From Nitrospira sp. (GTDB lineage: Bacteria > Nitrospirota > Nitrospiria > Nitrospirales > Nitrospiraceae): DNA of 64,000 nucleotides. The notes beneath the pieces were generated by a model that had not been told where the DNA came from, did not search any database, and saw nothing but the letters and a program-made list of their open reading frames with translations. Made by a program: the position numbers and the translations under genes. Shown piece after piece: positions 1,895 through 31,509 of this stretch. The stretch is from contig JADJXO010000007.1 in assembly GCA_016715825.1 (NCBI GenBank), positions 24,421 through 88,420 of the forward strand, in the 5' to 3' direction. Positions within the stretch are counted from its first letter, which is position 1. Every line of letters begins with the position of its first letter.

Positions 1895-2223
1895 TTTGTG
1901 ATGTCTCCAGTTGCTGTTGGAAACCTTACAGCGCCACCTCCTTCTTGCCTATTCCCTAATAGTAGTCCCACAGAGTTGCACCGCGACACGCTTCCTACTC
2001 CAGACGGCTGCCCCATATCTCTGCGCTACATCAGCAAGGGAAATGCCGGACTCAGGCAGCTTCGGAACTGTCGAGAATTCCGTCATATCGCATTGCCTGC
2101 GAAGACAAGTGCTTCTGTCTGCGGTAAAGCCAGAAGTCCTACCTCTGTATTCGAAAGGATGCAGGGAGGTCGCGATGTCCGCGGAGGACCTAGAGAGGCC
2201 AGTAATGGGTGTAGGGGTGTGTG

Positions 2224-2643: not shown

Positions 2644-2664
2644 TTGGTGTTCGAGGGTATGGCG

Positions 2665-3756
2665 TCAGAGCTTGGTGTAAAAGGGGAGGGTCTGAATAGT
2701 TGCCGGATATCGGTTGTTCTCATGTTCCACGGTCAAGGCGGTACCAGGCTTGCTGAAGTCTCGCAGCGGAAATCCGAATGCCACGACTTGGTTGAGTTGA
2801 GGGGAATGTGCCGCACTGCTGATCCACCCTACTTCACGATCGCCGCTATAGAGCTTAGCACCATGTGGTGGAATGACGGAATCCTTCAGAACCAGTCCGA
2901 CAAGCTTGCGGCGGACGTTGCCGTATGTATCCATACGCGCGACGACTTCTTGCCCCGGATAGCACCCTTTGTTCAAACTGAACGCTTTGCCCTCGAGGTT
3001 CGCCTCGGGTGGAACAATCTCTTCGTTCAAGTCCGGTCCGGCTTTCGGGAGACCGGCCTCGAGGCGCAAGGCCTCTCGTGCCTGGCTACCGATGGCCTTG
3101 ATTCCAAACCTGGCGCCGGCTTGCATGGCAGCCGTCCATGCGGGCAGCAGGCTGTCTGCCGGAAGCAATATCTCGATATCGACCTCTCCGGTCTCTTCCG
3201 TGCGTGCTACCAATGCATGATGCCCGCCGATATGCGCGGTCACGAAATCGATGGGTTGTAAATCTGTGACATCTACTCCGAATGCTGATTGGACAACATG
3301 AGTGGTCTTTGGCCCACTGATCAAGAGTAGCCCCCAACTCTCAGCGCAGTTTTCCATCTTGGCGTTGGTTCCGTAGAGCAGGAACTTACGAAGCGCCTGA
3401 AACGTCGTCTCCCCAATTTCGCCGACATCTTCCACCATGACGGCATCACTTTGCATGTACAGGCGGAAATAGGTGAGCATCTTACCCTTATGAGTCAAAA
3501 AGCTGGAATAGCGGCCTTGGCCAGATTGGAGAGGAAGGATGTCGTTGCTCACGACGCTTTGCAGCCACTTCACACGATCCTCACCCGTGACTCTGAGCTT
3601 GCCGCGATGGGAGAGATCAGCGATTCCCACGGTTTGTCGAACGGCATGATGCTCAGCGGCAACATCGCCATAGTGCCCTGGCATGTCCCAGCCGGTGACC
3701 GCTTCGAACGTTGCCCCGAGTTGGGCATGTTGTGAATGCAGGCGTGATTGCTTCAT
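2665..3756 (-). CDS. ygfZ: YgfZ/CAF17-family folate-binding Fe-S cluster maturation protein (GcvT-like fold)
   Basis: GcvT-type N-terminus (IADLSHRGKLRVTGEDRVKWLQ) plus the YgfZ signature KGCYPGQEVVAR. Confidence 0.88.
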   Translation of the reverse strand: MKQSRLHSQHAQLGATFEAVTGWDMPGHYGDVAAEHHAVRQTVGIADLSHRGKLRVTGEDRVKWLQSVVSNDILPLQSGQGRYSSFLTHKGKMLTYFRLYMQSDAVMVEDVGEIGETTFQALRKFLLYGTNAKMENCAESWGLLLISGPKTTHVVQSAFGVDVTDLQPIDFVTAHIGGHHALVARTEETGEVDIEILLPADSLLPAWTAAMQAGARFGIKAIGSQAREALRLEAGLPKAGPDLNEEIVPPEANLEGKAFSLNKGCYPGQEVVARMDTYGNVRRKLVGLVLKDSVIPPHGAKLYSGDREVGWISSAAHSPQLNQVVAFGFPLRDFSKPGTALTVEHENNRYPATIQTLPFYTKL

Positions 3757-3819
3757 CGTCCTTTGAGAAGCCTACGAGTGGTTGTGATGAATGTCACGGA
3801 AGACAACGAGCTCCCGCCA

Positions 3820-4203
3820 TTATGAGGAGGCGACATGTCCTGTCACCAATTCCTCTACTAATGCTTTCGTCCGAGCCGAAAACTCATTGCGGGACACGAT
3901 CTTGGTTACGCCGAGTACCTTTGCGCGATTCCAGGTGTCCACTTCCTCATGGTTGGCAAAGGCCAGTGTGGGAATCGCACACAATCCTGGATCGCCATTC
4001 AGCTGTTCCAATGCGTGAAACGCATCAAGAGTTAAATCGTTCATATTGAGAATGATCAAGCTTGGGCTTGCCGACGCGGCCTTGTCGATGATGTCCTGCT
4101 GAGCTCGGGCTTTCTCTATCTGGAACTCCGTCTGGCGCAGCGCATCCTTGACTTTCGTGTAGAAGAACAAGTCGGTGATGGCCACGAGGATAGTCTTGTG
4201 CAT
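3820..4203 (-). CDS. CheY-like receiver-domain protein lacking the phospho-acceptor Asp
   Basis: Receiver fold pattern (ILVAITD...PSLIILNMN...IPTLAFANH...GVTKIVSR); Asn at the phospho-Asp position. Confidence 0.72.
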   Translation of the reverse strand: MHKTILVAITDLFFYTKVKDALRQTEFQIEKARAQQDIIDKAASASPSLIILNMNDLTLDAFHALEQLNGDPGLCAIPTLAFANHEEVDTWNRAKVLGVTKIVSRNEFSARTKALVEELVTGHVASS

Positions 4204-4213
4204 GAGTACGACC

Positions 4214-4729
4214 TTAGTTCAGTGAGCTCACCAGCCGCCCGAGGGCCCTTCTGGCAAGTTTATAATTCGGATCCAGCGCGAGCGCTTTCTTGTACGACTC
4301 GATGGCGTCGGTCCAGTTTCCCAACCGCTCGTATACCCGGCCGAGATTCAAGTGGGGGTAGGCAGGACTCTCGTACCGCTTGGCCTGCATCGCTTTCTGA
4401 AACCAGGTAATGGCCTCCTCGAACGCACCCTTTTCGATCATGTATGCCCCGATATCGTTGTAGGGGTTGCCGAAATCCGGGTCTTGCGCAATAGCTTTGT
4501 GGCATTCTTCGATGGCGTCATCAAGCCGTCCCATAAAGCTATAGGTCCACCCCAAGAATGTGTAACCCTCGGCAGTGGGATGGGTTGCGATCGATTGCTT
4601 GTAGAGGTTGACCGCTTCTTCAAAGTCCCCTTTCATCTGTCGTTCAAAGGCCTGTTGGAACAGATCCCATGCGTGGCGCTTGTCTTCCTCGCGCCCTTCG
4701 CCTTGAAGGAGGAAATCTTGAACGTCCAT
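4214..4729 (-). CDS. Tetratricopeptide repeat protein
   Basis: Four TPR motifs (AEGYTFLGWTY, PYNDIGAYMIEKG, PHLNLGRVYERLG, KKALALDPNY). Confidence 0.9.
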   Translation of the reverse strand: MDVQDFLLQGEGREEDKRHAWDLFQQAFERQMKGDFEEAVNLYKQSIATHPTAEGYTFLGWTYSFMGRLDDAIEECHKAIAQDPDFGNPYNDIGAYMIEKGAFEEAITWFQKAMQAKRYESPAYPHLNLGRVYERLGNWTDAIESYKKALALDPNYKLARRALGRLVSSLN

Positions 4730-4812
4730 GTTTCGAAAACACCTCTAGGCAGTCGTCAGCGCGGTGTAGAACAGCCATGAAACCGTTGCGGTTTGACGAC
4801 CGAGAGTTGCCG

Positions 4813-5613
4813 TTACTCCTGTTTGAGTTTCTTCTTGATCAATTCAGCTCCGTACCGTCCCGAGAGTAACATGGACCCGAAAGCGGGTCCCATTCTCGGT
4901 GTGCCGTAGACGGCGGCGACGGCCAACCCGATCACGAAACAATTGGGATAGACCTCTCCCGTTCGGTCCATGATTTCTTCTTCAGATCGCGCCACCCACA
5001 TGGCTCCGTTTCCTGGTACTTTATTATACAGATTTCGTTTATGGAGAAGCTCGACCACGATGGCATCATGGCCGGTCGCATCCACCACGATTTTGCTCTC
5101 GAGGGCAATCGGATCAACATGGATCAGATCATGGCCTGCCATTTCGGCCGTGGTGTTGTTGACGACGACTCCCTCCAGTATGCCATCATTGCGGATGATC
5201 AAGTCCAGCACGCGCGTCAGGTTCATCACCTTGGCGCCGGCGTTGTACGCGGCTGAGATCAGGGCGCCTGTCGCGTGTGGGGGATCGACCATATACATTC
5301 CGTCGCATTCTTTGATCTTTTTGCAGGGAACGCCGATTTCATCGAGAATCTCATTTGCCGGTTCGCAGATTGTGGCTTTGTTCATAAGGTAGCCACCGGA
5401 CCAAAATCCTCCACCCAGGGCCAAGCTTTGCTCGATGAGCAGCGTTCGAAATCCCATAGAGGCTAGATCATGCGCACAGATTAGTCCAGACGGCCCTGCA
5501 CCGACGATGATGACATCGCTTTCGATGAGCTGATCGAACTCTTTATAGTATTCCCGGGCGATCTGCCTGGTGATATCTCGTTCACGTAACGGCGCAGGCT
5601 TCGGTTTTGCCAT
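4813..5613 (-). CDS. thi4: Thi4 thiazole synthase, His-type (sulfide-dependent)
   Basis: IVGAGPSGL Rossmann motif, GGGFWSGG, HVDP (His where suicide THI4s have Cys), VDATGHDA, PRMGPAFGSMLLSG; directly after thiC. Confidence 0.93.
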   Translation of the reverse strand: MAKPKPAPLRERDITRQIAREYYKEFDQLIESDVIIVGAGPSGLICAHDLASMGFRTLLIEQSLALGGGFWSGGYLMNKATICEPANEILDEIGVPCKKIKECDGMYMVDPPHATGALISAAYNAGAKVMNLTRVLDLIIRNDGILEGVVVNNTTAEMAGHDLIHVDPIALESKIVVDATGHDAIVVELLHKRNLYNKVPGNGAMWVARSEEEIMDRTGEVYPNCFVIGLAVAAVYGTPRMGPAFGSMLLSGRYGAELIKKKLKQE

Positions 5614-5622
5614 ACAGCTCTC

Positions 5623-7557
<1,935 letters not shown>

Positions 7558-7601
7558 TTATCGCAAGTGATAGTTTTGCTCACGACAACGGTTTCCCCAA
7601 T

Positions 7602-7638
7602 AAAAAAGCCGTCTCCCCAGTATGCCAGGAAGGCGGCT
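7602..7638 (-). terminator. Intrinsic terminator of the TPP riboswitch expression platform
   Basis: Minus strand AGCCGCCTTCC-loop-GGGAGACGGCT followed by a T6 run, between aptamer and thiC start. Confidence 0.7.
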
Positions 7639-7666
7639 GACTCCTCATCAGGGTCCGCTGTCGTCC

Positions 7667-7749
7667 GGCTTCCCTACGCTGGTATTACCCAGGTCAGGTT
7701 GTGAGGGTCGTCCGATCATTCGGACTCTCAGCTCTAGGCTCCCCTAGCG
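7667..7749 (-). ncRNA. TPP (THI-box) riboswitch aptamer
   Basis: Minus strand CTAGGGGAGCC...GCTGAGA...GACCCT-CACAACCTGA-CCTGGGTAATACCAGCGTAGGGAAG matches the TPP consensus; upstream of thiC. Confidence 0.96.
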
Positions 7750-7759
7750 ATTCTTAGTG

Positions 7760-7788
7760 ATCGTATTACTCTAGGGTTGTGAAGTCAA
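7760..7788 (-). promoter_or_regulatory. Sigma70-type promoter of the riboswitch-thiC transcript
   Basis: Minus strand TTGACT-N17-TACGAT ending about 10 nt before the aptamer. Confidence 0.62.
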
Positions 7789-7860
7789 TCGGCTATTAGA
7801 CCCAGCATGCCCACTATCCTTTGGGGCTCGAACTAGGACTTTTCCGCACGAGGCTATTCA

Positions 7861-7889
7861 TTGATTGTGAGGGAAGGCTATCGTAAAAT
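7861..7889 (+). promoter_or_regulatory. Sigma70-type promoter of nadA
   Basis: TTGATT-N17-TAAAAT, 26 nt before the nadA GTG. Confidence 0.5.
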
Positions 7890-7915
7890 GACCTTTCTTT
7901 TTCGTTGGAGGATCT

Positions 7916-9019
7916 GTGCCAGCCATTGCGACAGTCCCAAAGCCGATTGACACGTACCAGGCGCTACCCGCCGAAGAATTGCGTCGGCGGATCATAGCAG
8001 CCAAGCAGCTACTGGGTGAGCGAGTCATGATTCTGGGCCATAACTACCAGCGGGATGAAGTCATCCAGCATGCTGATTTTCGTGGTGACTCGCTGTTGTT
8101 AGCCAAACTGGCCGCCGAGCGCTCCGAACGACCCTACATCGTATTTTGCGGCGTACACTTTATGGCTGAGACGGCGGATATCCTCAGCCGTTCCCAGCAA
8201 ACAGTCATCCTGCCGGACATGGCTGCGGGCTGTTCCATGGCGGATATGGCTGCGATCGAGCAGGTTGATCAATGTTGGGAGGCGCTGGGGCGCGTGATTC
8301 CAGTCGAGGAGACCGTGATGCCGGCCGTCTATGTGAATTCGGCGGCGGTCCTAAAGGCGTTTTGTGGAGAGCATGGAGGGATTACGTGTACATCATCCAA
8401 CGCCAAAGCAGTGATCGAATGGTGTTGGGCGAGGCGAGAAAAGATTCTCTTTTTCCCGGACGAACATCTCGGTCGGAATACGGCCAATAAGATGGGTATT
8501 CCGCGCGAGCAGCTGATCGTGTGGGACCCCTATCAACCCAACGGCGGGAATACCAGAGACGCCATCAAGCGAGCTACTTTGATCCTGTGGAAGGGGCATT
8601 GCAGTGTCCATCAAATGTTCCAGCCGGTGCATGTGGACCATTTTCGCAAACAATATCCAGACGGGAAGGTGATCGTCCATCCAGAGTGTCACGAGGATGT
8701 GGTGAACAAGGCCGATCTCATCGGATCGACCGAATTCATCATCCGGACCGTGACGGCTGCGCCGGCCGGTACGACGTGGGCGGTCGGGACGGAGCTGAAT
8801 CTCGTGAATCGTTTAAAACACGAACTCACCGACAAAAAAGTCTTCTTCTTGTCTTCTACGGTTTGTCAGTGCGCCACCATGTTTCGGATCGATGCGGCGC
8901 ACCTGTGCTGGGCCATGGAGAATCTGGCAGACGGTCACGTCGTCAACCGCATCGTGGTGCCGGAGGACGATAAGCAGTGGGCAAAAATCGCACTTGACCG
9001 TATGATGGCAGTGAGTTAG
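7916..9019 (+). CDS. nadA: Quinolinate synthase A
   Basis: ILGHNYQ, FCGVHFMAET, AGCSMAD, YVNS, GHCSVH, VHPEC, GTE motifs. Confidence 0.96.
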   Translation: MPAIATVPKPIDTYQALPAEELRRRIIAAKQLLGERVMILGHNYQRDEVIQHADFRGDSLLLAKLAAERSERPYIVFCGVHFMAETADILSRSQQTVILPDMAAGCSMADMAAIEQVDQCWEALGRVIPVEETVMPAVYVNSAAVLKAFCGEHGGITCTSSNAKAVIEWCWARREKILFFPDEHLGRNTANKMGIPREQLIVWDPYQPNGGNTRDAIKRATLILWKGHCSVHQMFQPVHVDHFRKQYPDGKVIVHPECHEDVVNKADLIGSTEFIIRTVTAAPAGTTWAVGTELNLVNRLKHELTDKKVFFLSSTVCQCATMFRIDAAHLCWAMENLADGHVVNRIVVPEDDKQWAKIALDRMMAVS

Positions 9020-9092
9020 GGCTGGTACCTACCCCCTTCCTTCCGGTATATTCCCTCGATTCCGTATGATGGTGTGAGTGTGCTGGTGTTCC

Positions 9093-11915
9093 ATGTCTAC
9101 TGATTACAAGTCGACACTCAATCTTCCCAAGACCGATTTCCCGATGAAGGCGAACTTGCCTCAGCGGGAACCTGCGATGCTGGCCTGGTGGGGGGAGCAG
9201 AAGCTCTACGACCAGATTCAGGCCTTGGGGAATGGGCGGCCTCGGTATGTTTTGCATGATGGTCCTCCGTATGCCAACGGCCGTATCCATATCGGACATG
9301 CCCTGAACAAGGTCCTCAAGGATATCATCGTTAAGTCGAAGACGATGGCAGGCTTTCATGCGCCCTATGTGCCGGGGTGGGATTGCCACGGGTTGCCGAT
9401 TGAGCATCAAGTCATGAAGGAGCTCGGCGACAAGAAAAAGGACTTGAACGTGTCGGCCATCCGCAGGCTGTGTCGTGAGTATGCTGAGCGATACGTCACT
9501 ATTCAACGAGAGGAATTCAAACGGCTCGGGGTGCTGGGTGAATGGGACCATCCCTATCTGACGATGACGTCGGCCTATGAGGCCACGATCATTCGTGAGT
9601 TCGGGAAGTTTGTCGAGCGTGGCGGGGTCTACAAGGGGCTCAAGCCGGTACTCTGGTGCACGCATGATCAAACGGCGCTGGCGGAAGCGGAAGTCGAATA
9701 TGATGATCATACATCGCCATCGATCTATGTGAAGTTCCCGGTCGTCACCGCGCCATCGGTTCTGGCGAACACCTTTCCTGGTATGTCTTTTCCGGATGGG
9801 ATGAAGCTGGTGTCCGTCGTCATCTGGACGACCACGCCATGGACCCTGCCGGCCAACCAGGCTGTCTGCCTCCACCAAGATTTCGACTATGCTTTTGTTC
9901 AGGCCGGCAATGAGCTGCTGATCGTGGCGGAAAAGCTTGTGGACAACGTCACGAAGGCTTGTGGGATCAGTGATTATCGTGTCGTGGGAGTGAAAAAAGG
10001 TGGAGAAGGTTTTGAGGGCTTGGAAACGCAACGACCGTTGTCCACCGGCCTGTCACCTATCTTGCTTGGGGATTTTGTGACGCTTGATCAGGGGACTGGT
10101 TGTGTTCATATCGCGCCCGGCCACGGTATGGAGGACTATCTGCTTGTGCTGGAGCACAACGCGAAGGCGTCGCCTGGTGAGCGGCTTGAAATTCTCGCAC
10201 CGGTGGACAACAGTGGCCGGTTTACAGTGATCGTGAAGGAATTCGCCGGCCAGCAGGTCTTGAAGGCCAATCCGAAGATTGTGGAGTATCTGCAGGGGAA
10301 CGGGCGTTTGCTGGGGCATGGTTCGCTGAACCATTCGTATCCGCACTGTTGGCGGTGTAAGAATCCGGTGATCTTCCGTGCGACCGAGCAATGGTTCGTC
10401 TCGATGGAGACGAATGACTTGCGGAGAGAAGCTCTGGCGGAAATCGAACGAGTCCGATGGATTCCGAGCTATGGGCGTGATCGGATCTTCGGTATGATCG
10501 AAAACCGTCCGGACTGGTGCCTTTCACGTCAACGTGTGTGGGGTGTACCGATTCCAGGGTTCACCTGTCTCGGATGTCATCATGTGTTGGCCGAGCCTTC
10601 CATCATTGAGCATGTGGCGGTTTTGATGGAATCAAAGGGGGCGGATGTCTGGTTCGAACAATCCGCTGGTGACTTATTGCCGGTTGGAACAACCTGTCAG
10701 AAGTGTGGCGGAACAGGGTTTGAGAAAGAGCGGGACATTCTCGATGTCTGGTTTGAATCCGGTGTGAGCTACGCGGCTGTGCTGAAGCCAAGAAAGTGGG
10801 AAGCCGATTTGTATCTCGAAGGGTCCGACCAACATCGGGGCTGGTTCCATAGCGCCCTGCTCGCTGGTGTCACGACGGATCATCGCGCCCCCTACAAAGC
10901 GGTGTTGACCCATGGGTTCGTCGTAGACGGGCAGGGGAAGAAGATGTCCAAGTCGGCCGGGAATGTCGTCGCGCCGCAGGATGTCATTAAACAGTCGGGC
11001 GCGGAAATCCTCCGTCTGTGGGTGGCGGCTCAGGATTATCGTGAAGATCTGCGCATCTCACAGGAAATTCTGACTCATCTGATCGAGGCCTATCGAAAGA
11101 TCCGCAATACTTGCCGATTCTTGTTGAGCAACCTCTATGACTTCGATCCGAACTATTTCCGGGTGCCTTATGAGGATTTGCCCGAATTAGATCGTTGGGC
11201 GCTTTTGCGGCTGGGCGAATTGATTCAGAAGGTGACAAAAGCTTACGAGGACTTCGAATTCCATCTCATCTTTCATGCGATCAACAACTTCTGTTCGGTC
11301 GACATGAGCGCAATTTATCTGGATATCCTGAAAGATCGACTGTACACCTTTCGCAGGGATTCTCATGCTCGGCTAAGCTCACAAACGGTGTTATTCGATG
11401 TGGTGGTGGCGCTTACGAAATTGATGGCGCCAATCCTTAGCTTTACATCCGAAGAGATCTGGCAGAAGTTGCCGGAAGCTGCCCGTATGAGCCCCAACGG
11501 TCAAAGCGTTCATTTGTCCTCATTTCCTGAGATAGACCCAAGATGGAACGATGCGGGGTTGGATAGCCGATGGAATCGACTGCTGGAGGTTCGAGTGGCC
11601 GCACAAGCGGCTCTAGAAGAACAGCGCCGAGAAAAAGTGATCGGTTCCTCTCTTGAGGCTGGTATCCGGATTCAAGCAAATCCAGATAAGTTTGGACTTC
11701 TCAAACAATACGAGCAAGTCCTGCCGGGTATCCTCATCGTCTCACAGGTTAAGCTGGAAGAGGTTCACAACTTGCCTCTTAAGCCGGACTTTCGAGTTCT
11801 TGTCTATAAAGCCGAGGGCAATAAGTGCGAACGCTGTTGGAACTATCGCGATGCTGTCGGCAAGGATCATGACCACCCGACTCTCTGTGAGCGATGTGTG
11901 GAGGCCGTCTTATGA
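9093..11915 (+). CDS. ileS: Isoleucine-tRNA ligase (type 1)
   Basis: [41 protein letters not shown]-terminal Zn finger CERCWNY...LCERC; start at ATG 9093 ([16 protein letters not shown]). Confidence 0.98.
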
Positions 11916-12436
11916 ACGCGTCTTGGCTTCGCAATATGGCGCTGGCACTGGTGACCGGCAGTATCGTTCTGCTGGATCAGCTGACCAAGCAGCAGATCAT
12001 GCAGACGATGCGCTTACACGAGTCGATCCCCATCATCCCCAATCTTTTCAGCCTGACCTATATTCGGAATCCAGGCGCGGCGTTCGGGTTATTGGCTGGG
12101 AGCAGCAACGCGTTTCGGATGGTGTTTTTTGGGCTGACCTCGATCTTTGCACTCGGGTTGCTCGGCACGATCCTGGCGCGGATGCCTGAGCAGGACCGGG
12201 TTGGCCGCGTCAGTGTGGCGGGAATTCTCGGCGGCGCGATCGGTAACTTAATCGATCGATTGCGGTTTGGGGAAGTGATCGATTTTCTGGATGTCTATAT
12301 CGAGAACTATCACTGGCCCGCGTTTAATGTGGCGGATTCCGCCATCACCGTCGGCGTGACCTTCCTGATCATTCACTTCGCATTTGAGAAGAAATCCGAC
12401 TCCTCCACCGCCTCAGAGCCTAATTCCGTTCCCTAA
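11912..12436 (+). CDS. lspA: Lipoprotein signal peptidase II
   Basis: [38 protein letters not shown]; ATGA overlap with ileS stop (conserved ileS-lspA operon). Confidence 0.97.
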
Positions 12437-12467
12437 TTCAAATTTCGCCTTGTGTGTAGGCGTCTTT

Positions 12468-12503
12468 GGTCATTCGTTTCGGGCCGACCCGGCACGAATG
12501 ACC
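12468..12503. terminator. Hairpin between convergent lspA and DUF2024-like gene
   Basis: Perfect 10-bp stem GGTCATTCGT/ACGAATGACC. Confidence 0.5.
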
Positions 12504-12515
12504 GCGACTTCTTTG

Positions 12516-12776
12516 CTAGGCGGGCATGGGGACGATGAATCCACCCTTCTCTTTGACCTGTTTCTGCTGCTCCGATGAAAACATCACGAGTGGTTCGCTG
12601 TGACAAAACTGGCATTCCTTCGTCGTCACCACAGCATTGGGCTCACCGATGCTGACCAAGTACTCCTTGGCAAGCTTGAGCGCGGTCGCTTCATCCGTCG
12701 TCATCACATCGAAGTGAATGCGACCATTCTTTCCATGAACCCACGTATCGTAGACATGAATCGTATCTGAAGCCAT
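12516..12776 (-). CDS. DUF2024-like small protein
   Basis: HVYDTWV...IHFDVM...AKEYLVSIG...ECQFCHSE...GGFIVPM pattern; SD GGAG before ATG 12776. Confidence 0.78.
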   Translation of the reverse strand: MASDTIHVYDTWVHGKNGRIHFDVMTTDEATALKLAKEYLVSIGEPNAVVTTKECQFCHSEPLVMFSSEQQKQVKEKGGFIVPMPA

Positions 12777-12788
12777 GCACAACTCCTT

Positions 12789-13664
12789 TCAACGAACGAC
12801 CAACAAGACCAACACTCCGAGCATAATACGATAGTAGGCAAAGACCCGCAAGGTGTGCCGTTTGACATAGGTGAGGAAGGCAGCGATGACGGCCCAGGCG
12901 ACAAGGAATGACACGACCATGCCGAGCGCGAGCGCTAAAAAGTCTTGCTCGGTAAAGGTTCCGCGTGCCTTCCAGGTTTCGTAGAGTGTGGCCGCAATGA
13001 TGGTCGGGAGAGCGAGAAAAAAGGAATACTCTGTGGCGACCTTGCGATCGAGGCCTGCAAGTAGGCCACCGATGATGGTTGAACCGGATCGTGACATGCC
13101 GGGAATCAGTGAGGCGCATTGCGCGACGCCGATCCAGAACGCCTGCATCGGTGAAACTTGATCCAGGCTTGTCGCGTGACTCGTGCGTTTGGTGGCTTCG
13201 ACGATCAGGATGACGAAGCCTCCGAGAATCGAAGTCGTCGCCACGGTCTGGGGGGTGAACAGATGTGACTTGATCCATCCATGTGCAGCGAGCCCGAGGA
13301 GGGCAGCCGGGAGAAAGGCGATCCCTAACCCGATCAAGAACCATAAGTTGTGATGCTGTTGCATCGAAGCCTTGATTCGATCTGTCCAGGACGCATGCGA
13401 CCCGCTTGTGCTGATGGAACGAAATGTCTGTTGTTCCTGCCAGGCGCCGGAGAGAAGCCGACCGATCTTTTCCCGTTCGAACACGATGACGGCGAGAATC
13501 GCTCCCAACTGAATCGAGATTTCCGCGTTGGCCGCCACGTCTCCGGTGAACCCAAGGGCATGGCCGACAAGGATCAGATGCCCGGTGGATGAGACGGGAA
13601 GAAACTCGGTCATCCCCTCCACGACTCCAAGAATCACGGCGAGTGCTGGACCCCATTCGTTCAT
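12789..13664 (-). CDS. uppP: Undecaprenyl-diphosphate phosphatase
   Basis: GVVEGMTEFLPVSSTGH, IQLGAILAV, PGMSRSGSTI, EYSFFLALP; start at ATG 13664 after GGAG. Confidence 0.96.
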   Translation of the reverse strand: MNEWGPALAVILGVVEGMTEFLPVSSTGHLILVGHALGFTGDVAANAEISIQLGAILAVIVFEREKIGRLLSGAWQEQQTFRSISTSGSHASWTDRIKASMQQHHNLWFLIGLGIAFLPAALLGLAAHGWIKSHLFTPQTVATTSILGGFVILIVEATKRTSHATSLDQVSPMQAFWIGVAQCASLIPGMSRSGSTIIGGLLAGLDRKVATEYSFFLALPTIIAATLYETWKARGTFTEQDFLALALGMVVSFLVAWAVIAAFLTYVKRHTLRVFAYYRIMLGVLVLLVVR

Positions 13665-13960
13665 GCTGTACTCCACTTCCGATTGTGGACCATCAAGGTT
13701 TCGCCCTCCATGGTCATGTCTGATAGAATGTGTCGGATAATCACAGAGCGACGCCGATCCGTCAAGCGCATTGGTTCTTCTGATCCGGCTATTGCGGAAC
13801 AGCGCTGGTTGGTCTCGAACAAGAGCAATTATGTTGACAATACCGAGGGGTTGGCATACACACAAAGAACGCCATCACATGAACGGGGATATGGCGGGAT
13901 GCAAGTAGGGATTCGTATGAAGCACATTCAAGCCGCAGGATTTGATGGAGGGAGGATCGC

Positions 13961-14647
13961 ATGAAGCGCGAGTGGACGGCAATAGTATTGGTCGGTGCCG
14001 TGTTGACTACGGGTTGCGTCTCCAACAAGAAATATCAAGAAGCGCTGACCGAGGCGGACACCGCCAGGATGGAATTGGAAAAGGCTCGCCAACAGAAGGG
14101 TGCGATGGAACAGCAGGTCCGCACGCTCAAGGAGCTGAACGTCAAATTCAACAACGAGGCCGAGGCTGCTCGGGATGAATTGCAACGGTTTGAGCACGGA
14201 CGTGATGCAGAACGAGGCACGCTCGAGGCACGAACCAAAGAACTCGAAGATAAGGTGCGAGCGTTATCAGCCCAAAATCGGAATGTGCGGCAGGAATATC
14301 AGGACGTCAAGCGTCACAACGACACACTGAAATCGTTGGTAACTCGCTATCAAAAAGAGCTGAAAGATCGTTCTCAATCAGGGTCGGCGGCGCAGGCCGC
14401 CACAGTGACTCCCAAACAGGGTTCAGGGGGGACGGCCTCGGCCGCACCAGGGACGACTTCAGCGTCGTTGAATATCAATAAAGTTTCGGCCAACGATATG
14501 GTCCTCTTCTTGGGGCTCAAACAGGATGAGGCCGATCGGATCGTCAATAATCGTCCCTATCGTGTGAAAGGTGAACTGGTGGCGAAGAATGTCGTCCCAA
14601 AGGAAACCTTCGACCTGATTAAGGACCGCATTTCCGTGAGCCCATAG
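13961..14647 (+). CDS. Lipoprotein with coiled-coil stalk and C-terminal ComEA-like helix-hairpin-helix domain
   Basis: Lipobox LTTGC, about 110 aa of heptad-rich helix, low-complexity linker, then LNINKVSANDMVLFLGLKQDEADRIVNNRPY...KDRISV (HhH_3-like). Confidence 0.72.
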   Translation: MKREWTAIVLVGAVLTTGCVSNKKYQEALTEADTARMELEKARQQKGAMEQQVRTLKELNVKFNNEAEAARDELQRFEHGRDAERGTLEARTKELEDKVRALSAQNRNVRQEYQDVKRHNDTLKSLVTRYQKELKDRSQSGSAAQAATVTPKQGSGGTASAAPGTTSASLNINKVSANDMVLFLGLKQDEADRIVNNRPYRVKGELVAKNVVPKETFDLIKDRISVSP

Positions 14648-24656: not shown

Positions 24657-25316
24657 ATGGAACGCAAACTTGAACCAGAACTCATGGACGATCCTAAGCA
24701 GGTTGAAGCCTATGGCAAAGCTGATTTCGAAGAAGAAAATCAGGGATTCGTTGAACGGTTTCGGGAATACTTCCCGGAGTTTGCACAGGGGATGGTTCTG
24801 GATCTTGGGTGTGGTCCGGGTGATATCCCCATCCGGTTCGCCAAGCTGTATCCCGATTGCCGAGTCATCGGGATCGACGCTTCTGCGCCGATGATTCAGC
24901 TCGGAGAACAGGCGGTGCAGCAGGCCGGTTTGACGGATCGCATTACGCTGCGCTGCGAACGGTTTGAAGAGATTGCCGGTGCCAGAATCGTCGATGCCGC
25001 GATCTCGAACAGCCTGCTTCATCATCTGCCGAATCCGTTGCAGCTCTGGCAGAAGCTTCGCCAGCTTGTGAAGCCCGGGGCACCGGTGTTGGTGATGGAC
25101 CTGCTCCGGCCAGACTCGCCGGAAGCGGCACAGGCCATCGTCGATCAATATGCCTCCAATGAACCGGACATTCTGCGCCGGGATTTTTACAATTCCTTGC
25201 TCGCAGCTTTTACTGAAGATGAAATCGGTACGCAGCTAGCTCGCATGAATCTCACCAGGTTGTTGATCGACATCCCCGATGACCGGCATTGGGTGGTTGG
25301 GGGAATCATTTATTGA
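24657..25316 (+). CDS. Class I SAM-dependent methyltransferase
   Basis: RKLEPELMDD, VLDLGCGPGD, GIDASAPM, SNSLLHHL, DFYNSLLAAF. Confidence 0.9.
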   Translation: MERKLEPELMDDPKQVEAYGKADFEEENQGFVERFREYFPEFAQGMVLDLGCGPGDIPIRFAKLYPDCRVIGIDASAPMIQLGEQAVQQAGLTDRITLRCERFEEIAGARIVDAAISNSLLHHLPNPLQLWQKLRQLVKPGAPVLVMDLLRPDSPEAAQAIVDQYASNEPDILRRDFYNSLLAAFTEDEIGTQLARMNLTRLLIDIPDDRHWVVGGIIY

Positions 25317-25323
25317 GGGGTAT

Positions 25324-25677
25324 ATGCGAGAAGATTCATGGATCATCTTGAGAGGACGATTGCGTGATTGCTGGACTTTGGTGGGTAGCTTTATCTTTAT
25401 CGCAGTCATTTCTGCCGGGTGCGGTGAACGAGAAAACTTCCTAGAAATAGAGATGCCGACGGATCTTCGAAGTATTGAACCGGCATCATCTTCAACTGGG
25501 TCGACAAGTACTGGGGTTGAGCCAGGAAAGGTGATCGCGACTCTGAAAGCAGGCGAGACGGCCCATGTCGTCGCTGTCTACCACGGTGAGAATTTTGATG
25601 GCTTCAAAGTCAAGCTTGCCGACGGTACTGAGGGACTTATTCTTGCCGGGGACACCTTCAAGGTCGTAACTCGGTGA
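25324..25677 (+). CDS. Small lipoprotein with SH3-like C-terminal domain
   Basis: Lipobox ISAGC after a hydrophobic stretch; VIATLKAGETAHVV...FKVKLADGTEGLI is SH3b-like. Confidence 0.62.
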   Translation: MREDSWIILRGRLRDCWTLVGSFIFIAVISAGCGERENFLEIEMPTDLRSIEPASSSTGSTSTGVEPGKVIATLKAGETAHVVAVYHGENFDGFKVKLADGTEGLILAGDTFKVVTR

Positions 25678-25810
25678 GTCCTGGCTAAAACAACTCCCAA
25701 CCCTGCTTGTCACACACAGAAGCATCACGTGCCAACTTGCTGCCTGATAACGAAAGGTATACCGGGCATTGTGCTCAGTAGGTAGCTCTTATCCGGGTCA
25801 GGAAACATAG

Positions 25811-26662
25811 ATGGTCAGACGCGAGATGAATGCAGACGGCGTTCCGATCGTCATCCAACAGGACCTCTCTCCCACCGTATATCTTGACCACTGGGCTTTG
25901 CGGAAGTTTTCACAAGACTCTGTGCTGGCAAAGCGGTTTACACGCACGTTGGAAGGACGCGGAGGTACGCTTGCGCTCTCTTGGCTGAACCTGGCTGAGT
26001 TCTCAAAGGTCACTGACCAAGACCAAGGAAAGATGGCGGAAGAATTTTGTGCAGCTAATTTCCCGAGAATCTTTTTTCTCGACTCGGACCCGTTCTCAGT
26101 AATCCAACGGGAGGATGAAATATTGTCTGGCCGTATTAGGGTGCCTGTCCCACCACACGCTGATGCTGGATTTCTTAGCGCGTTCGACCAACTGAATTCG
26201 GACACGCTTACTGATTTCACGATGCGCAAACTCTTCCGAAGAGTTCAGAGCAATCGTCTGCACTCTGATTTTGACAAACTAGCCGACACCGTGGCCCAGC
26301 GCATTGAGGCGCTAAGGAATAAGCATAATCAGAGACGAGAGCTGCGCTCTGCAGTAGCGCGGTTGCCAGCGGGCCTTAAGATTCAACGGGGGACTCGATA
26401 CGTTCTCCGGGAGTTGGCGCGAACGCTTCTCCTTGATAAGGGCGTGAAGGTGTCGAGGAATCATGCGATTGACTTCATGCATGCTGTTGTCCCGCTTTCG
26501 TATTGTGAGTACGTGCTCTTAGACAAGCACTGGGAGACCCAGGTTGAAAAGGTTCGCTCACGCCTTAGCAAAATGGCTTTCAATGTGTCGCTCGCACGGG
26601 CCTATTCAGAGAAGCCTGAAAGAATCGAGAAATTCTTTTCTGATCTGGAGAGTAGGAGCTAA
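25811..26662 (+). CDS. Hypothetical protein with PIN-like acidic motif arrangement
   Basis: 283-aa ORF: VYLDHW (beta1 Asp), LSWLNLAE (Glu), NHAIDFMHAV (Asp), YVLLDKHW (Asp). Confidence 0.62.
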   Translation: MVRREMNADGVPIVIQQDLSPTVYLDHWALRKFSQDSVLAKRFTRTLEGRGGTLALSWLNLAEFSKVTDQDQGKMAEEFCAANFPRIFFLDSDPFSVIQREDEILSGRIRVPVPPHADAGFLSAFDQLNSDTLTDFTMRKLFRRVQSNRLHSDFDKLADTVAQRIEALRNKHNQRRELRSAVARLPAGLKIQRGTRYVLRELARTLLLDKGVKVSRNHAIDFMHAVVPLSYCEYVLLDKHWETQVEKVRSRLSKMAFNVSLARAYSEKPERIEKFFSDLESRS

Positions 26663-26844
26663 AACTGCAGTCGACATGATCAACGAAGATGAAGCTAGGA
26701 GTTCGTCTTGCTCCGTGCATACTCGCGTGCGGACATATCTGGCGTCACATTGTGTTCTGTACAAACACGATCTTAGGGATGGTGCCTGCACAGATCGCCG
26801 CGCGTCGACTTTCTAGGCGACCTAATCACGACCATTGCTCGTTG

Positions 26845-27050
26845 TTACTGCAGCGCATCCGGTGGAGCTTTGAGGAGCTTGGCGAAGCGGTTCTTATCGA
26901 TAGACTTCTCGTACGCCTCTTCCGGTGAAATCCATTTCTTCGTGAGGAGATCCTGAATCGCGTCATCCAAGGTCTGCATGGCTGAGGCGATCGGAAGCGT
27001 TTTGGCGTTCCGGATAAGATTGCTGACGGCTGGGGTGCAGACCAAGATCT
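26845..27050 (-). repeat. Distal orphan copy of the pilT 3' end (206 bp, with an internal 24-nt deletion)
   Basis: Aligns to pilT 29564-29793; translates ILVCTPAVSNLIRNAKTLPIASAMQT/LDDAIQDLL...PPDALQ*; GKNVGMQT lost between two CATGCAGACC repeats. Confidence 0.95.
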
Positions 27051-27106
27051 TTAGCTCTCTCACGGGCGTTTCATCATTCTATTCCCGTATTGCCTGATAA
27101 TTGGCA

Positions 27107-27141
27107 TTGCCGATGGTGTCTCGGTTATGTACACTGTACAT
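27107..27141 (+). promoter_or_regulatory. brnTA promoter with overlapping palindromic operator
   Basis: TTGCCG(27107-12)-N17-TACACT(27130-35) with extended -10 TG; perfect inverted repeat ATGTACA-C-TGTACAT (27127-27141) covers the -10. Confidence 0.75.
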
Positions 27142-27426
27142 ATGCATGAGTTGCGCTTCGAATGGGATGAAGCAAAGAATCGCAGCAATATAAAAAAGCA
27201 CGGCGTCTCATTCGAAGAAGCGCAGACGGTATTTCTCGATGATCATGCGATCAGATTCTACGATCCCGATCACTCCGGCGACGAAGATCGCTTTCTCATG
27301 CTGGGTATCAGCTTCAGAATGCGGGTACTGGTTGTCTGCCATTGCTACAGGGAAAGTGATCGAGTTATCCGGATCATCTCGGCACGGAAAGCCACCCGAA
27401 GTGAAACCAGAATCTATAAGAGGTGA
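27142..27426 (+). CDS. brnT: BrnT family type II toxin (RelE-like ribonuclease)
   Basis: FEWDEAKNRSNIKKHGVSFEEAQTVF...EDRFLMLG...VIRIISARKAT. Confidence 0.94.
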   Translation: MHELRFEWDEAKNRSNIKKHGVSFEEAQTVFLDDHAIRFYDPDHSGDEDRFLMLGISFRMRVLVVCHCYRESDRVIRIISARKATRSETRIYKR

Positions 27427-27429
27427 TAG

Positions 27430-27648
27430 ATGAGAGAACAATATGACTTTTCGAAGATGAAGGGTGTTCGGAATCCCTACCGGAAATTGCTCAAGAAGCC
27501 CATCACGATTAGATTGGACGGCACAACAATATCTTATTTTAAAGGACTGGCCGATGAGCTTGGCATGCCGTATCAGCATCTTATCAATCTGTACCTGAGG
27601 GATTGTGCCCTCAACCAGAAAAAGCTGGAGCTCAAGTGGGCATCCTGA
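27430..27648 (+). CDS. brnA: BrnA family antitoxin (ribbon-helix-helix)
   Basis: MREQYDFSK...NPY...KKPITIRLD...YFKGLA...MPYQHLINLYLRDC; 3 nt after brnT. Confidence 0.9.
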   Translation: MREQYDFSKMKGVRNPYRKLLKKPITIRLDGTTISYFKGLADELGMPYQHLINLYLRDCALNQKKLELKWAS

Positions 27649-27820
27649 TGTTTTTGCGAGGTCAGGCCATTGTTTCATTGTCTCTTGTGGCGCCCCATCA
27701 ACCTCGAAAGGCAAAGAAGGTTTATCTCTTGTTCAGTTAGGCACTACGCTAACTGGGAGGCCATAAGGGACTAGTTGTAAGTGAATCGCGTATCGTTCTC
27801 TATGACGACGTGAATCGAAG

Positions 27821-27968
27821 CTACTGCAGCGCATCCGGTGGAGTTTTGAGGAGCTTAGCGAATCGGTTCTTGTCGATGGACTTCTCGTACGCTTCTTCCG
27901 GCGCAATCCATTTCTTCGTGAGGAGATCTTGAATTGCGTCATCCAAAGTCTGCCTGCCGACGTTCTTC
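27821..27968 (-). repeat. Proximal orphan copy of the pilT 3' end (148 bp)
   Basis: Translates KNVGRQTLDDAIQDLLTKKWIAPEEAYEKSIDKNRFAKLLKTPPDALQ*; 16 substitutions vs pilT by hand alignment, 13 synonymous. Confidence 0.95.
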
Positions 27969-28049
27969 TTAAGCCTATGGGGGTCGGTATCTTGAGCTTG
28001 TGATTTGATCTCCATACGGGTTTGCTGCCCGTTCAGATCGCCACGTGCC

Positions 28050-29099
28050 TCAAGGGCAAGTTACCGGTTGTTGGATAGTAGTCCAAGAACCATTGGTCTC
28101 CTGTCGCTGAAGCCTGCAAACAGGCGCTGGTGGTGGAGTAGTCGAAATCGTGCCAACCGCGATTCGGTCCCAATGGAAGCGGACGGTCTGGTCCCCTGGC
28201 AATGTGCCCGCCACGACTCCCGCAAAATATGTGTAGATGGGACGGTTTGTCAGGGCGCTTGGTAGAGCCGGGAGGCCGGTCTGTGCAAAGTAGCGATAGC
28301 CGTTCACATAGAGTTCGAGAGAGGTAGGCGTAAGCTCAAGCCGAAATCGATCACGGCAATTCACATCAGGGTCGGAACCATTACAGACGCGAAACTTCGT
28401 GGCCCCCTCTCCCCAGGGTCCTCCGCCCTCCGAAACCTGCCCGACTTTTTGGAAGAAGGACATCTCCCAAATTCGGCCTCCCTGATTAATTCCACGAGCA
28501 CTATTGTCGAAAAGTGAACAGACGATAATCCGATCCGTCTGGAGCCGGCATCCGAGGGTATAGTGACCGGGGAAGTGATCATATGCGTATAGTGCATCGG
28601 CTCGTTCTCCCGTCGGATTCTGGGCCGTCGTAATGACGATCTCGCCCCAAATCCCGTTCCCGTAGCTCTGTACTCCGGCCGCAAAATCAGTTTCGATGAT
28701 CAATTTGTCGTTATCGAACTGGAAGGCGCGTTCGGGCCGCAGCACGGTTCCCCCTTTTCGATCAGCCGCGACATCTTGCATCCAATGGTCGTTATGGCGG
28801 AAATGCGCAAAACGTGTGGTAGCGCCTAATTGGAATTCTCGGTAGCCATTTCCCATGGGTGCATTGGACAAACCATGTTGAAAATCATCCGTCCAGGCAT
28901 TCCCTCCTTGATGAAAGGTAGCGGAACCGGTGGCACCCTCAGGCAGACACCAGATAGGGACAGCCGGAGGCAACGCGCCAATTGGTGTTCCACGCGAGGT
29001 GCACCGGGCGTCTTGTGCCCAGGAGGCCAGAGGTAGGCTTATCACCAAGCTGGCTGACACAACGATGAGGAACAACCGTGACACATGATGTCGGGACAT
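28050..29099 (-). CDS. Secreted protein with probable concanavalin A/LamG-like beta-sandwich, 8 Cys
   Basis: Start at ATG 29099 after GGAG; signal peptide MSRHHVSRLFLIVVSASLVISLPLASWA; RFRLELTPTSLELYVNG and VRFHWDRIAV resemble LamG/GH16 end strands. Confidence 0.68.
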   Translation of the reverse strand: MSRHHVSRLFLIVVSASLVISLPLASWAQDARCTSRGTPIGALPPAVPIWCLPEGATGSATFHQGGNAWTDDFQHGLSNAPMGNGYREFQLGATTRFAHFRHNDHWMQDVAADRKGGTVLRPERAFQFDNDKLIIETDFAAGVQSYGNGIWGEIVITTAQNPTGERADALYAYDHFPGHYTLGCRLQTDRIIVCSLFDNSARGINQGGRIWEMSFFQKVGQVSEGGGPWGEGATKFRVCNGSDPDVNCRDRFRLELTPTSLELYVNGYRYFAQTGLPALPSALTNRPIYTYFAGVVAGTLPGDQTVRFHWDRIAVGTISTTPPPAPVCRLQRQETNGSWTTIQQPVTCP

Positions 29100-29563
29100 G
29101 ATGGAACTCCTTTCGATGCTGGATACCGTCGTGCGCAAAAGTATGAACTCGTGTATAAGGCGTGCTTGGTCAACTTGGACATATCGGTAGCCCCTAAGAG
29201 ATGCATGTCCCATTCCACAGACGGACCGTAAAGGATTGTACAAACCTAAGGGAGTCAACCGGTTCTGTGGAGTGATTATGATGCGTGCGTGACCATTGTG
29301 TAATGGTTGTAGGGATAAGCCTTCATTTCACCGTCGGATGATACGTAACAGGCAGTGGCTAGGGTGAAACATTGGTCTGTGTACATGGCAAACTGCGAGG
29401 CTGACCTCATGCTTGTTGAGTGATGATGTTCTGGGAGGCAGAATTCTTGGGTGAGCAGGAGAGCGGCGTCGTTGTTGTGTACCGCGCTATGAATAAGAAG
29501 GCGTACACCAAAAGAGTGGTGCAGTCGAAAGTCTGGGCTTGATATGCAGTGGCCCATCCATGA

Positions 29564-30643
29564 CTATTGCAGCGCATCCGGCGGGGTTTTGAGGAGCTTG
29601 GCGAAGCGGTTCTTGTCGATGGCCTTCTCGTAGGCCTCTTCCGGCGAGATCCATTTCTTGGTGAGCAGATCCTGAATTGCATCATCCAAGGTCTGCATGC
29701 CGACGTTCTTCCCGGTCTGCATGGCTGAGGCGATCTGAAACGTTTTGGCGTCCCGGATGAGATTACTGACGGCCGGGGTGCAGACCAAGATCTCCAGCGC
29801 TGCACACCGTCCCTTCTGATCAATTCGCTTAAAGAGGTTCTGCGCGACGATGACGCGCAGCGCCGTAGAGAGCGTGTTGCGAATCTGCGGTTGCTCCGAG
29901 GACGGGAAGACTTCGATGATGCGGTCGACCGTCTTCGCGGCATTTTCCGTGTGCAGCGTGCCGAACACCAAATGCCCGGTTGCCGCTGCTTCCACCGCCA
30001 GCGCAATGGTCTCGAGATCTCGCATCTCGCCGACGAGGATAATATCCGGATCTTCTCGGAGGGCGCCCCGCAGAGCTGAGCCGAAGGTGACGGTGTGGAG
30101 GCCGATTTCTCGGTGGTTGACGATGCAGCTCTTGCTTTGATGGACGAACTCGATCGGATCTTCGATGGTCAGAATATGATCTTTCCGATTGCGGTTGGCA
30201 TAGTCGACCATCGCCGCCAAGGTGGTGGATTTACCGCTCCCGGTCGGCCCCGTCACGAGCACCAGCCCTTTCCGTAGCATGGCCGCGCGTGTCAGTACGG
30301 GGGGGAGGCCCAGCTCTTCGGCAGAGACGATGGTGGTGGGAATCTTCCGAAACACTGCGCCAATGCCGTGCTTGTGGTTGAAAAAGTTTGATCGGAACCG
30401 GGCAACGCCGGCAATTTCATAGCCAAAGTCCACGTCACCGGTCGCTTCAAAGACTTCCTTCTTGGAACTCGGCGCGATCTCGTAGAGCATCTCATGAAGG
30501 GCCTGGTTCTCGAGCATGACGGTTCCCGGCAGACGTTCCAATTCACCGTTGATCCGAAAGCCTGGAACTTGGCCGGCAATCAGATGAAGATCCGAAGCCT
30601 TGTGTTCAAGCATCATACGGAACAATTCATCGATTTTTGGCAT
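29564..30643 (-). CDS. pilT: Type IV pilus retraction ATPase
   Basis: ASDLHL, Walker A GPTGSGKST, TIEDPIE, ALREDPDIILVGEMRD, GHLVFGTLH, AIRNLIRE-like AVSNLIRD, GMQTLD. Confidence 0.96.
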   Translation of the reverse strand: MPKIDELFRMMLEHKASDLHLIAGQVPGFRINGELERLPGTVMLENQALHEMLYEIAPSSKKEVFEATGDVDFGYEIAGVARFRSNFFNHKHGIGAVFRKIPTTIVSAEELGLPPVLTRAAMLRKGLVLVTGPTGSGKSTTLAAMVDYANRNRKDHILTIEDPIEFVHQSKSCIVNHREIGLHTVTFGSALRGALREDPDIILVGEMRDLETIALAVEAAATGHLVFGTLHTENAAKTVDRIIEVFPSSEQPQIRNTLSTALRVIVAQNLFKRIDQKGRCAALEILVCTPAVSNLIRDAKTFQIASAMQTGKNVGMQTLDDAIQDLLTKKWISPEEAYEKAIDKNRFAKLLKTPPDALQ

Positions 30644-30798: not shown

Positions 30799-31509
30799 AT
30801 GGAAGGCCAAACCAACGAACCGACAACCTCGGATGAGACGTCCGACAAGATCGTCATCTATTGGGAGCGGGAATACTCGACCGCCTTTCCGCCGGAGCGG
30901 CTGAAGCTGGACTTTCACCCCCATCGGCCGATGTTGAGCAACATGACGTTGGATGAGCAGCGGGCGCTTGCCGCCGGCGGCTACAAGGTGTTGCCGGATG
31001 ACTGTGGGCCGGTGCGAACGGTGGGCAACTATGGCTGGCTCATCCGCTGTCCGGCGGACGTGAAATTGCGCCGCACCGCCGAGGGTGTTCGGTGGCAATC
31101 GCCTCAGATCCTGCCGGAAGAGCGACTCCTCGGGTACAAGACCTTTTCCGGCATGTATGTCGATGTGATTCTGAACAGCGGCTACCCAAAACTCTGTTGC
31201 GGAGTTCGTCTCTATTATCCGAAGCATGTCGGCTTGATGATGAAGGATATGCCCAATCACTTTTATCACTACCCGGAACGGACCTTCACCGTGTGGGAAG
31301 GGATCAAGACGCAGGAGTACAAGCGCACCCCGAATCAGTATGCGTGGTTGCCGGACTACGAAGCCTTCACCGCCAACTTTCTCCTGCAGCTTCACAAGCC
31401 CACCTCGATCAAGCGTGGTGATCCGATCGGGATCATCTTGCCCGTTCTCTTGCCAAGACAGTTTGTGCTGGAGGAAATTCAGCACCCGCCTGCTTCGGGA
31501 TCTGAGTGA
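30799..31509 (+). CDS. Hypothetical protein (DUF6065/dUTPase-like pattern)
   Basis: 236-aa ORF divergent from pilT; YGWLIRCPADV and IKRGDPIGIILP resemble DUF6065-type proteins. Confidence 0.6.
   Translation: MEGQTNEPTTSDETSDKIVIYWEREYSTAFPPERLKLDFHPHRPMLSNMTLDEQRALAAGGYKVLPDDCGPVRTVGNYGWLIRCPADVKLRRTAEGVRWQSPQILPEERLLGYKTFSGMYVDVILNSGYPKLCCGVRLYYPKHVGLMMKDMPNHFYHYPERTFTVWEGIKTQEYKRTPNQYAWLPDYEAFTANFLLQLHKPTSIKRGDPIGIILPVLLPRQFVLEEIQHPPASGSE

Follow-up and report, generated by a model that had tools for sequence, protein, structure and literature searches.

Rhs genes are known to form C-terminal displacement arrays, for which homologous recombination through circular intermediates has been proposed (Jackson et al. 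2009, PMC2935791), and the sequential displacement of effector-immunity modules of the Vibrio cholerae type VI secretion system (T6SS) has been ascribed to homology-facilitated illegitimate recombination (Kirchberger et al. 2017, PMC5361080). Here, a locus of similar architecture is described in Nitrospira sp., in a stretch of 64,000 nucleotides (the window; assembly GCA_016715825.1, contig JADJXO010000007.1, positions 24,421 to 88,420), to which all coordinates refer unless a contig or another locus is named. An intact pilT paralog is followed there by two orphan copies of its own 3' end, each with different genes behind it. Read in the direction of pilT, the order is pilT, a gene for a secreted 349-aa protein (sec349), an orphan, the toxin-antitoxin operon brnTA, a further orphan and a gene for a 283-aa protein (hyp283), and then a 132-aa gene and a methyltransferase gene. 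The locus reveals no new enzyme and no special role for pilT; what it keeps, across living species, is every step in the entry of accessory genes into a compact chromosome, apparently with no mobility enzyme, from the empty site through one insert to two stacked inserts.

The architecture and the proposed mechanism match those of the Rhs, T6SS and long-target-duplication cases, whereas the ordinary core genes that serve as anchors, and the types of cargo, differ. As in the Rhs and T6SS arrays, pieces of the conserved part of a gene, variable in length and with different laterally acquired DNA between them, stand downstream of the intact gene in its own orientation; the newest insert adjoins the gene and there is no mobility gene. 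However, those systems swap a toxic tip together with its immunity gene, whereas the end of the PilT protein is conserved (48/48 and 77/77 aligned codons, 82-94% amino-acid identity) and is replaced by that of another allele. The cargo at the present locus also differs in consisting of separate genes (toxin-antitoxin, secreted protein, defence candidates), and the hosts in being ordinary core genes.

Insertion with long target duplication has been described for restriction-modification complexes (Nobusato et al. 2000, cited in Furuta et al. 2010, PMC2853133), with most of the reported cases in naturally competent species. The features given there recur at pilT: inserts are small (<20 kb), mobility genes are absent, the cargo is addictive, and long direct repeats (30 to ~420 bp in those cases) align to a single copy in a genome with an empty site. 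Three differences stand against these likenesses. The cargo in the window is brnTA and a lectin-fold protein and not a restriction-modification complex, with an Mrr-type enzyme at the locus in one other genome (G136); the repeats come from different alleles (80-89% identity, differing mainly at synonymous positions), which amounts to replacement plus displacement; and stacks of two occur.

Two further systems are less close. Integrative elements such as phage 21 and e14 at icd, or ICESt1 and CIME with their accretion at fda, rebuild the 3' end of the protein gene in which they insert, and they share with pilT a diverged replacement end, an old end at the far junction and the possibility of tandem accretion. 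Their integration, however, depends on a tyrosine recombinase and a constant core site, and neither was found here. Neisseria minimal mobile elements are reportedly alternative cassettes between two conserved genes that are exchanged by transformation and flanking homology and have no mobility genes; the hyp283 block, 99.4% identical between species and lying between the pilT stop codon and the 3' end of a convergent gene, behaves alike, but minimal mobile elements are described as allelic replacement and are not known to leave stacked displaced ends. Literature searches on Nitrospira with pilT and genomic islands, or on toxin-antitoxin cassettes with duplicated gene ends, returned nothing.

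Displaced pilT ends and the order of insertions

The anchor gene (complement strand, 29564..30643) encodes an intact protein of 359 aa that scores 449 bits against TIGR01420 (cut-off 319), which identifies it as a PilT/PilU type IVa pilus ATPase, and that matches Pfam T2SSE (1e-47). It is the third PilT-family paralog of the genome, the other two forming a separate pilT/pilU tandem on contig C1. Repeat search and alignment delimited the part of its 3' end that has counterparts in the orphans (29564-29801, complement strand). The proximal orphan (27821..27968, same strand) is a copy of 148 nt that corresponds to pilT nt 933-1080 with 89% identity to the live end, weaker homology beginning some 13 nt before it, while the distal orphan (26845..27058, same strand) is a copy of 214 nt that corresponds to nt 843-1080 minus 24 nt, the latter removed by an in-frame deletion (live nt 921-944) between two CATGCAGAC repeats. 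BLAST E-values for the orphans were 1e-51 and 1e-62, and the three copies of the pilT 3' end in the whole genome all lie in the window. All are co-oriented, and each runs to the stop codon, right after which the sequences part. Over 25200-29500 the G+C content falls from 0.58 to ~0.50. Short contigs from other public runs, spanning 26645-26869, 26884-27076 and 27925-28249, cross three of the junctions with zero differences.

The original prediction, a model's reading of the DNA letters made without database searches, had already described three co-oriented pilT ends in this gene order, which repeat search and alignment bear out; it had placed the distal copy at 26845-27050, where the start stands and the end is moved to 27058. 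Its counts were exact when the alignment was recomputed: the proximal orphan differs from the live end by 16 substitutions, of which 13 are synonymous, and nine variant positions are common to both orphans and absent from the live end. It had further held the orphans to be ends of once-functional alleles and not decayed duplicates. The synonymous excess and the shared variants agree with this, as do downstream flanks that match those of live pilT genes in other species.

These flanks were identified by comparing the pilT region across more than 35 Nitrospira species, for which 134 genomes of the genus, one per species, were searched. In the nearest species (G016) pilT is followed by hyp283, the 132-aa gene and the methyltransferase gene with no orphan, so that this genome represents the empty site for both inserts, the repeats being 148 and 214 nt. 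In five other species (G013, G041, G104, G117 and G139) pilT is followed by brnA, brnT and an orphan, and the distal orphan of the window shares with their orphans the same 5' boundary (nt 843/847) and the same junction sequence. Past the stop codon of the distal orphan, 181/182 nt are identical to the 182 nt past the stop codon of live pilT in G016, and the 172 nt past the stop codon of the proximal orphan are 88-91% identical to the spacer behind live pilT in four brnTA carriers. As a control, neither of the orphan-associated spacers could be aligned with the one behind live pilT in the window itself. The matching flanks in relatives therefore make the order of insertion readable, with the oldest insert farthest from pilT. 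As shown by these flanks, the locus has passed from pilT-hyp283 through pilT-brnTA-orphan-hyp283 to the present pilT-sec349-orphan-brnTA-orphan-hyp283, and the proximal orphan is, judging by its downstream spacer, the former live end of the earlier, brnTA-carrying state. The predicted history of at least two successive insertions, oldest farthest, is thus matched by intermediate states in living relatives. Equivalent arrays are also carried by the complete genomes G041 and G145. Meanwhile, two genomes (G091, locus L064; G105, locus L065) have kept an orphan pilT end and have no live pilT nearby, pilT apparently having been deleted after insertion.

Recombination signatures and recurrence in the genome

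Live pilT is itself a mosaic. Compared with G016, G094 and G145, it is 91-96% identical over nt 1-480 and 81-92% identical (mostly 81-89%) from nt 481. The breakpoint near nt 480 points to a homologous crossover by which the 3' ~600 nt came in, and the cargo with them, and this part (29564..30163, complement strand), delimited by the drop in identity past nt 480, would be the left recombination tract. On the other side of the array, the 1.27 kb at 25575-26844 are 99.3-99.5% identical to G016, in a setting where the adjoining distal orphan is 84% identical to the pilT end of G016 and the core flanks are 70-90% identical. These identities show a recent exchange of the hyp283 block between species. 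The block begins exactly past the pilT stop codon, as would be expected if recombination tracts extend as far as the homology does; for alleles with differing cargo, that limit is the stop codon.

The brnTA operon bears a comparable signature. Among six species it has 93-98% nucleotide identity (89-96% at third codon positions), whereas the adjacent methyltransferase gene has 79-88% (53-72% at third codon positions); since the operon is far more alike than the flanking core gene, it has evidently moved between species recently. Gene conversion within the genome was considered as a cause of this conservation and rejected, the genome holding only distant brnTA paralogs. Live pilT genes match the orphans at 88-95% at best, with no clear nearest allele, because the genome set contains one genome per species. 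A reservoir of silent cassettes for pilT variation, after the manner of Neisseria pilS, was likewise rejected, as orphans decay (by a deletion of 24 nt here, of 1 nt in G013 and of 54 nt in G094) and the same scar is found at metabolic genes.

Of the 134 genus genomes, 83 gave a match to the 3' end of this pilT paralog; among the remaining 51 are incomplete assemblies and genomes with a diverged paralog only. Orphans occur in 14 of these 83 genomes, with at least seven distinct 5' boundaries (nt 696-933) that each go with their own cargo, and 27 loci contain at least 15 cargo sets. The boundaries lie at pilT nt 696, 788, 843/847, 856, 872, 904, 909 and 933 and reveal no constant crossover core; the unequal 5' boundaries pointed out for the window thus extend to relatives, where they differ by cargo type. 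Direct repeats of the pilT end flank the inserts.

Scars of the same kind recur elsewhere in the window's own genome, and they have a direction. In a scan of 3502 proxy genes for copies of a gene terminus that lie within 15 kb and are not part of a comparable gene, copies of a 3' end that are co-oriented and downstream numbered 15, from 13 host genes, whereas every other configuration numbered 0-2. One of the 13 hosts, a cadherin-like repeat protein, is a false match caused by internal repeats. The hosts include trpA, uvrA, ribE, a ResIII/DEAD helicase gene and genes for Sel1 and HEAT proteins, and kbl has two orphans, making it the second stacked case in the genome. About a dozen genes besides pilT are thus followed by a co-oriented orphan, a copy of the final 78-293 nt of the gene that ends no more than 15 nt short of its stop codon; in six cases homology was traced as far as the stop codon itself. 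At the sites examined the cargo is largely of the toxin-antitoxin type (VapBC, HigB-like with a helix-turn-helix (HTH) protein, and others identified by sequence only). In another Nitrospira species a brnTA relative lies between the end of a PIN toxin gene and a 74-bp orphan of the same end. The further loci are C9:98093-100393, C6:888-3803, C3:360535-364007, C8:53929-55376, C6:42536-45298, C1:1136797-1140055, C3:101711-103914, C8:35810-38546, C13:366771-369878, C3:257555-261809 and C3:67868-71725.

Mechanism and alternative explanations

Serial displacement of gene 3' ends by the general recombination of the host, with no dedicated mobile element, is the likely explanation of the locus. Incoming DNA from another Nitrospira lineage would carry that lineage's own pilT-paralog allele, followed by different downstream genes. 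The left crossover would be ordinary homologous recombination within pilT, and the right join would fall within the 3' part of the recipient's own pilT; when a cargo first arrives this join would be illegitimate, and in later transfers it would be made by homologous pairing with the orphan that already stands behind the donor's cargo. The outcome would be an intact hybrid pilT and then the new cargo, with the old end left downstream of that cargo as a non-functional remnant. Two events of this kind would be stacked in the window, the first placing brnTA in front of hyp283 and the second placing the lectin-fold sec349 gene in front of brnTA. Addictive or useful cargo, such as toxin-antitoxin and defence genes, would favour retention, and the orphans would afterwards decay by deletion. 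Because, in the coordinates of the recipient, the left crossover would precede the right join, the geometry would be that of an ordinary ends-out replacement; insertion of a circle by a Campbell-type event, which Jackson et al. proposed for Rhs genes, would give the same product, and sequence alone does not separate the two. Dependence on RecA, the illegitimate first join and the route of DNA entry are parts of this explanation that we infer. The genome contains ComEC and DprA, proteins that also occur in non-competent bacteria.

Several observations weigh against displacement by general recombination, at least in its simplest form. The high-identity brnTA block is the operon alone, and the adjoining unique spacer is only 77-93% identical per 60-nt window; this is less alike than if the whole cassette had recently travelled together, and suggests later homogenisation of the operon only, such as a sweep confined to the operon in genomes already carrying the brnTA cassette, or several layers of recombination. 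No donor with a near-identical pilT end and cargo was found among the 134 genus genomes or on the contigs that carry sec349 homologs, and the joins of first insertions are therefore not open to inspection for microhomology. No demonstration of natural transformation in Nitrospira was found in the literature consulted. The bias of 3' over 5' copies (15 vs 1-2) is ascribed, by assumption, to selection against separating a gene from its promoter. Finally, a recombinase encoded elsewhere may act in trans, as is formally possible.

A recombinase is what would be expected if the array consisted of decayed tandem genomic islands, that is, integrase elements or cis-mobilisable remnants of them at the pilT 3' end, with the replacement end carried in attP and the integrases since lost. 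The product would be the same, with direct repeats of the gene end around each insert; the length of the repeat is constant for each cargo family, and a few nt past the stop codon (CAACGA / CTTCGA) recur in several cargo types. However, no integrase or transposase domain was detected in ~40 cargo proteins from 20 variable loci, a 12-kb insert included (among the scanned proteins are a cNMP-binding cyclase, a Sel1 protein, TIR, the Mrr of G136, AbiU2-HEPN, an FRG/PDC-S15 protein and RTX/Ig proteins). The genome has seven PF00589 matches, none of which is near any orphan locus, at pilT or at the dozen or so others, or on C7, the window's contig; this genome-wide search did not extend to serine recombinases or DDE transposases. 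Searches for tRNA genes and Rfam RNAs found none at the site. What the brnTA relatives in five genomic contexts have in common is the operon itself and its palindromic operator; no shared terminal site was seen, no attC-specific model having been applied. Moreover, the left tract of ~600 nt with its breakpoint near nt 480 is at odds with a fixed core at the gene end, and a single trans-acting integrase would not fit so many unrelated target genes. We therefore give the island explanation little credence, and the original prediction's view that no integrase is involved holds, as does its view that recombination fits better than site-specific integration. The same absence of PF00589 matches from C7 leaves no IntI candidate on that contig, and the description of the array as integron-like survives as a loose analogy only.

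The original prediction had gone on to propose that pilT is a hotspot because its product is the motor of DNA uptake, with transformation capturing cargo in an integron-like fashion without IntI or attC. The great variability of the locus, in cargo sets and in the 14 of 83 genomes with orphans, and the presence of ComEC and DprA are in its favour, yet the genome scan does not support the claim: the same scar stands at trpA, uvrA, ribE, kbl, the helicase gene and others of the dozen or so genes, as well as at the PIN gene of another species. The gene is moreover a third PilT-family paralog whose 3' end is present in 83 of 134 genomes, and two genomes have kept the orphan and lost the live gene. 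A special role of the uptake motor is thus very improbable. Hardly any plausibility attaches to a local tandem duplication of the pilT end with later divergence and unrelated insertions between the copies. Direct repeats in the same orientation could in principle result from it, but a ratio of 13:3 synonymous to non-synonymous changes is not expected of a dead copy, the downstream flank of each orphan is the flank of live pilT in another species, and live pilT is a mosaic. As to an artefact of assembly in which variants of the locus from several strains were combined, draft contigs of G136, G139 and G140 do break inside the pilT end, a sign of strain heterogeneity at the site. The chance that it accounts for the window is nonetheless negligible: the copies, at 80-89% identity, are too diverged to be mis-joined, the genome is in just 13 contigs, the closed or near-closed genomes G041 and G145 have equivalent arrays, and the independent short contigs cross three junctions without differences.

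Displacement by general recombination also has a bolder extension, which we regard as rather doubtful. Small addictive or defensive operons might form a recombinase-free cassette system, travelling with a core-gene end as a portable homology arm, looping out as circles between the live end and the orphan, and re-inserting at naive alleles in other species. If this were true, integron-like ordered arrays would stand at the 3' ends of many core genes, in Nitrospira and perhaps in many bacteria, as a general, direction-biased route of gene gain whose history could be read from the order of orphans. For the locus itself, serial displacement helps to explain the spread of toxin-antitoxin and defence genes in nitrifiers that are not yet genetically tractable. 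It also makes an orphan gene end a simple annotation marker of recent gene gain, and warns that such fragments should not be taken for pseudogenes of paralogs.

Cargo and flanking genes

The newest cargo gene, sec349 (28050..29099, complement strand), is separated from the live pilT stop codon by a spacer (29100..29563, complement strand) unlike the post-pilT spacers of relatives. Its product has a signal peptide and belongs to no Pfam family. The structural model (pLDDT 90) has the concanavalin-A-like jelly roll of lectins and glucanases, and Foldseek matched it to GH16 laminarinases and L-type lectins (E ~1e-6 to 1e-7), which supports at fold level the earlier description of a lectin-like secreted protein. 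No homolog was detected in the other 133 of the 134 Nitrospira genus genomes searched; homologs are mostly from Chloroflexota and other phyla, and the closest (72-78%) are on short metagenome contigs without pilT.

The middle cargo is a type II toxin-antitoxin operon (27127..27648, forward strand) of brnT (27127-27426; Pfam BrnT_toxin 7e-31) and brnA (27430-27648; BrnA and CopG antitoxin matches slightly under the cut-offs). The spacer of this insertion, from the proximal orphan's stop codon to that of brnA (27649..27820, complement strand), is the one with 88-91% identity to relatives. The palindrome ATGTACACTGTACAT (27127-27141) occurs once in the window, overlaps the first ATG of brnT and is kept in brnTA relatives elsewhere; by its position and conservation it is probably the BrnA operator, and the real start of brnT may be the ATG at 27142.

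The oldest cargo block (25575..26844) comprises a spacer, hyp283 (25811..26662, forward strand) and the last ~100 nt of the 132-aa gene. The 283-aa protein belongs to a widespread uncharacterised family (233 homologs) and has no match in Pfam, NCBIfam or PADLOC searches; its structural model (pLDDT 85) matched no solved structure significantly, VapC/PIN chains giving weak, partial matches (best E 0.18). The labels PIN-like and SH3-lipoprotein that had been given to genes of this part were without support from hidden Markov models (HMMs). The 132-aa gene (25279..25677, forward strand) converges on pilT and is present in most relatives at 48-89% identity. The right edge of the 99% block falls within it, and to judge from that edge its 3' end provides the recombination arm on the right-hand side of the variable region. 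Beyond it lies the conserved core flank, a class I methyltransferase gene (24657..25316, forward strand; Pfam Methyltransf_25/31) with 85-92% amino-acid identity across relatives. In L064 (G091), a fragment resembling the last 50 codons or so of the methyltransferase gene (oriented 4899-5042; 58% amino-acid identity, E 1.5e-10) lies past the 132-aa gene; across the variable region, the convergent gene may have the same type of scar at its end.

The largest insert, of 12 kb, lies in L057 (G112; oriented 2150-13973) between live pilT and the orphan that starts at pilT nt 696. It encodes EgtB-like and EgtD-like proteins (ergothioneine-type), a class V aminotransferase, an OpuAC-type binding protein and an MscS-like channel, together with open reading frames (ORFs) recognised by eye that we take to be an ABC permease and its ATPase. 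In L073 (G058; 765-1953), live pilT matches in two pieces ~100 nt apart (aa 1-214 and 212-359); a MOSC gene directly follows brnTA, and the orphan, the 132-aa gene and the methyltransferase gene have been lost. In the window, a 236-aa gene (30799-31509) stands upstream of pilT; in L037, L038 and L039 (G005, G020 and G009) it stands downstream, so either pilT or the 236-aa gene has been relocated within the locus. Away from pilT, L076 (G102:C39:311000-321000) contains dense, diverged direct repeats (74-278 bp, 88-98%) around a brnTA relative and a partial brnA, and may be a further stacked array at a different locus.

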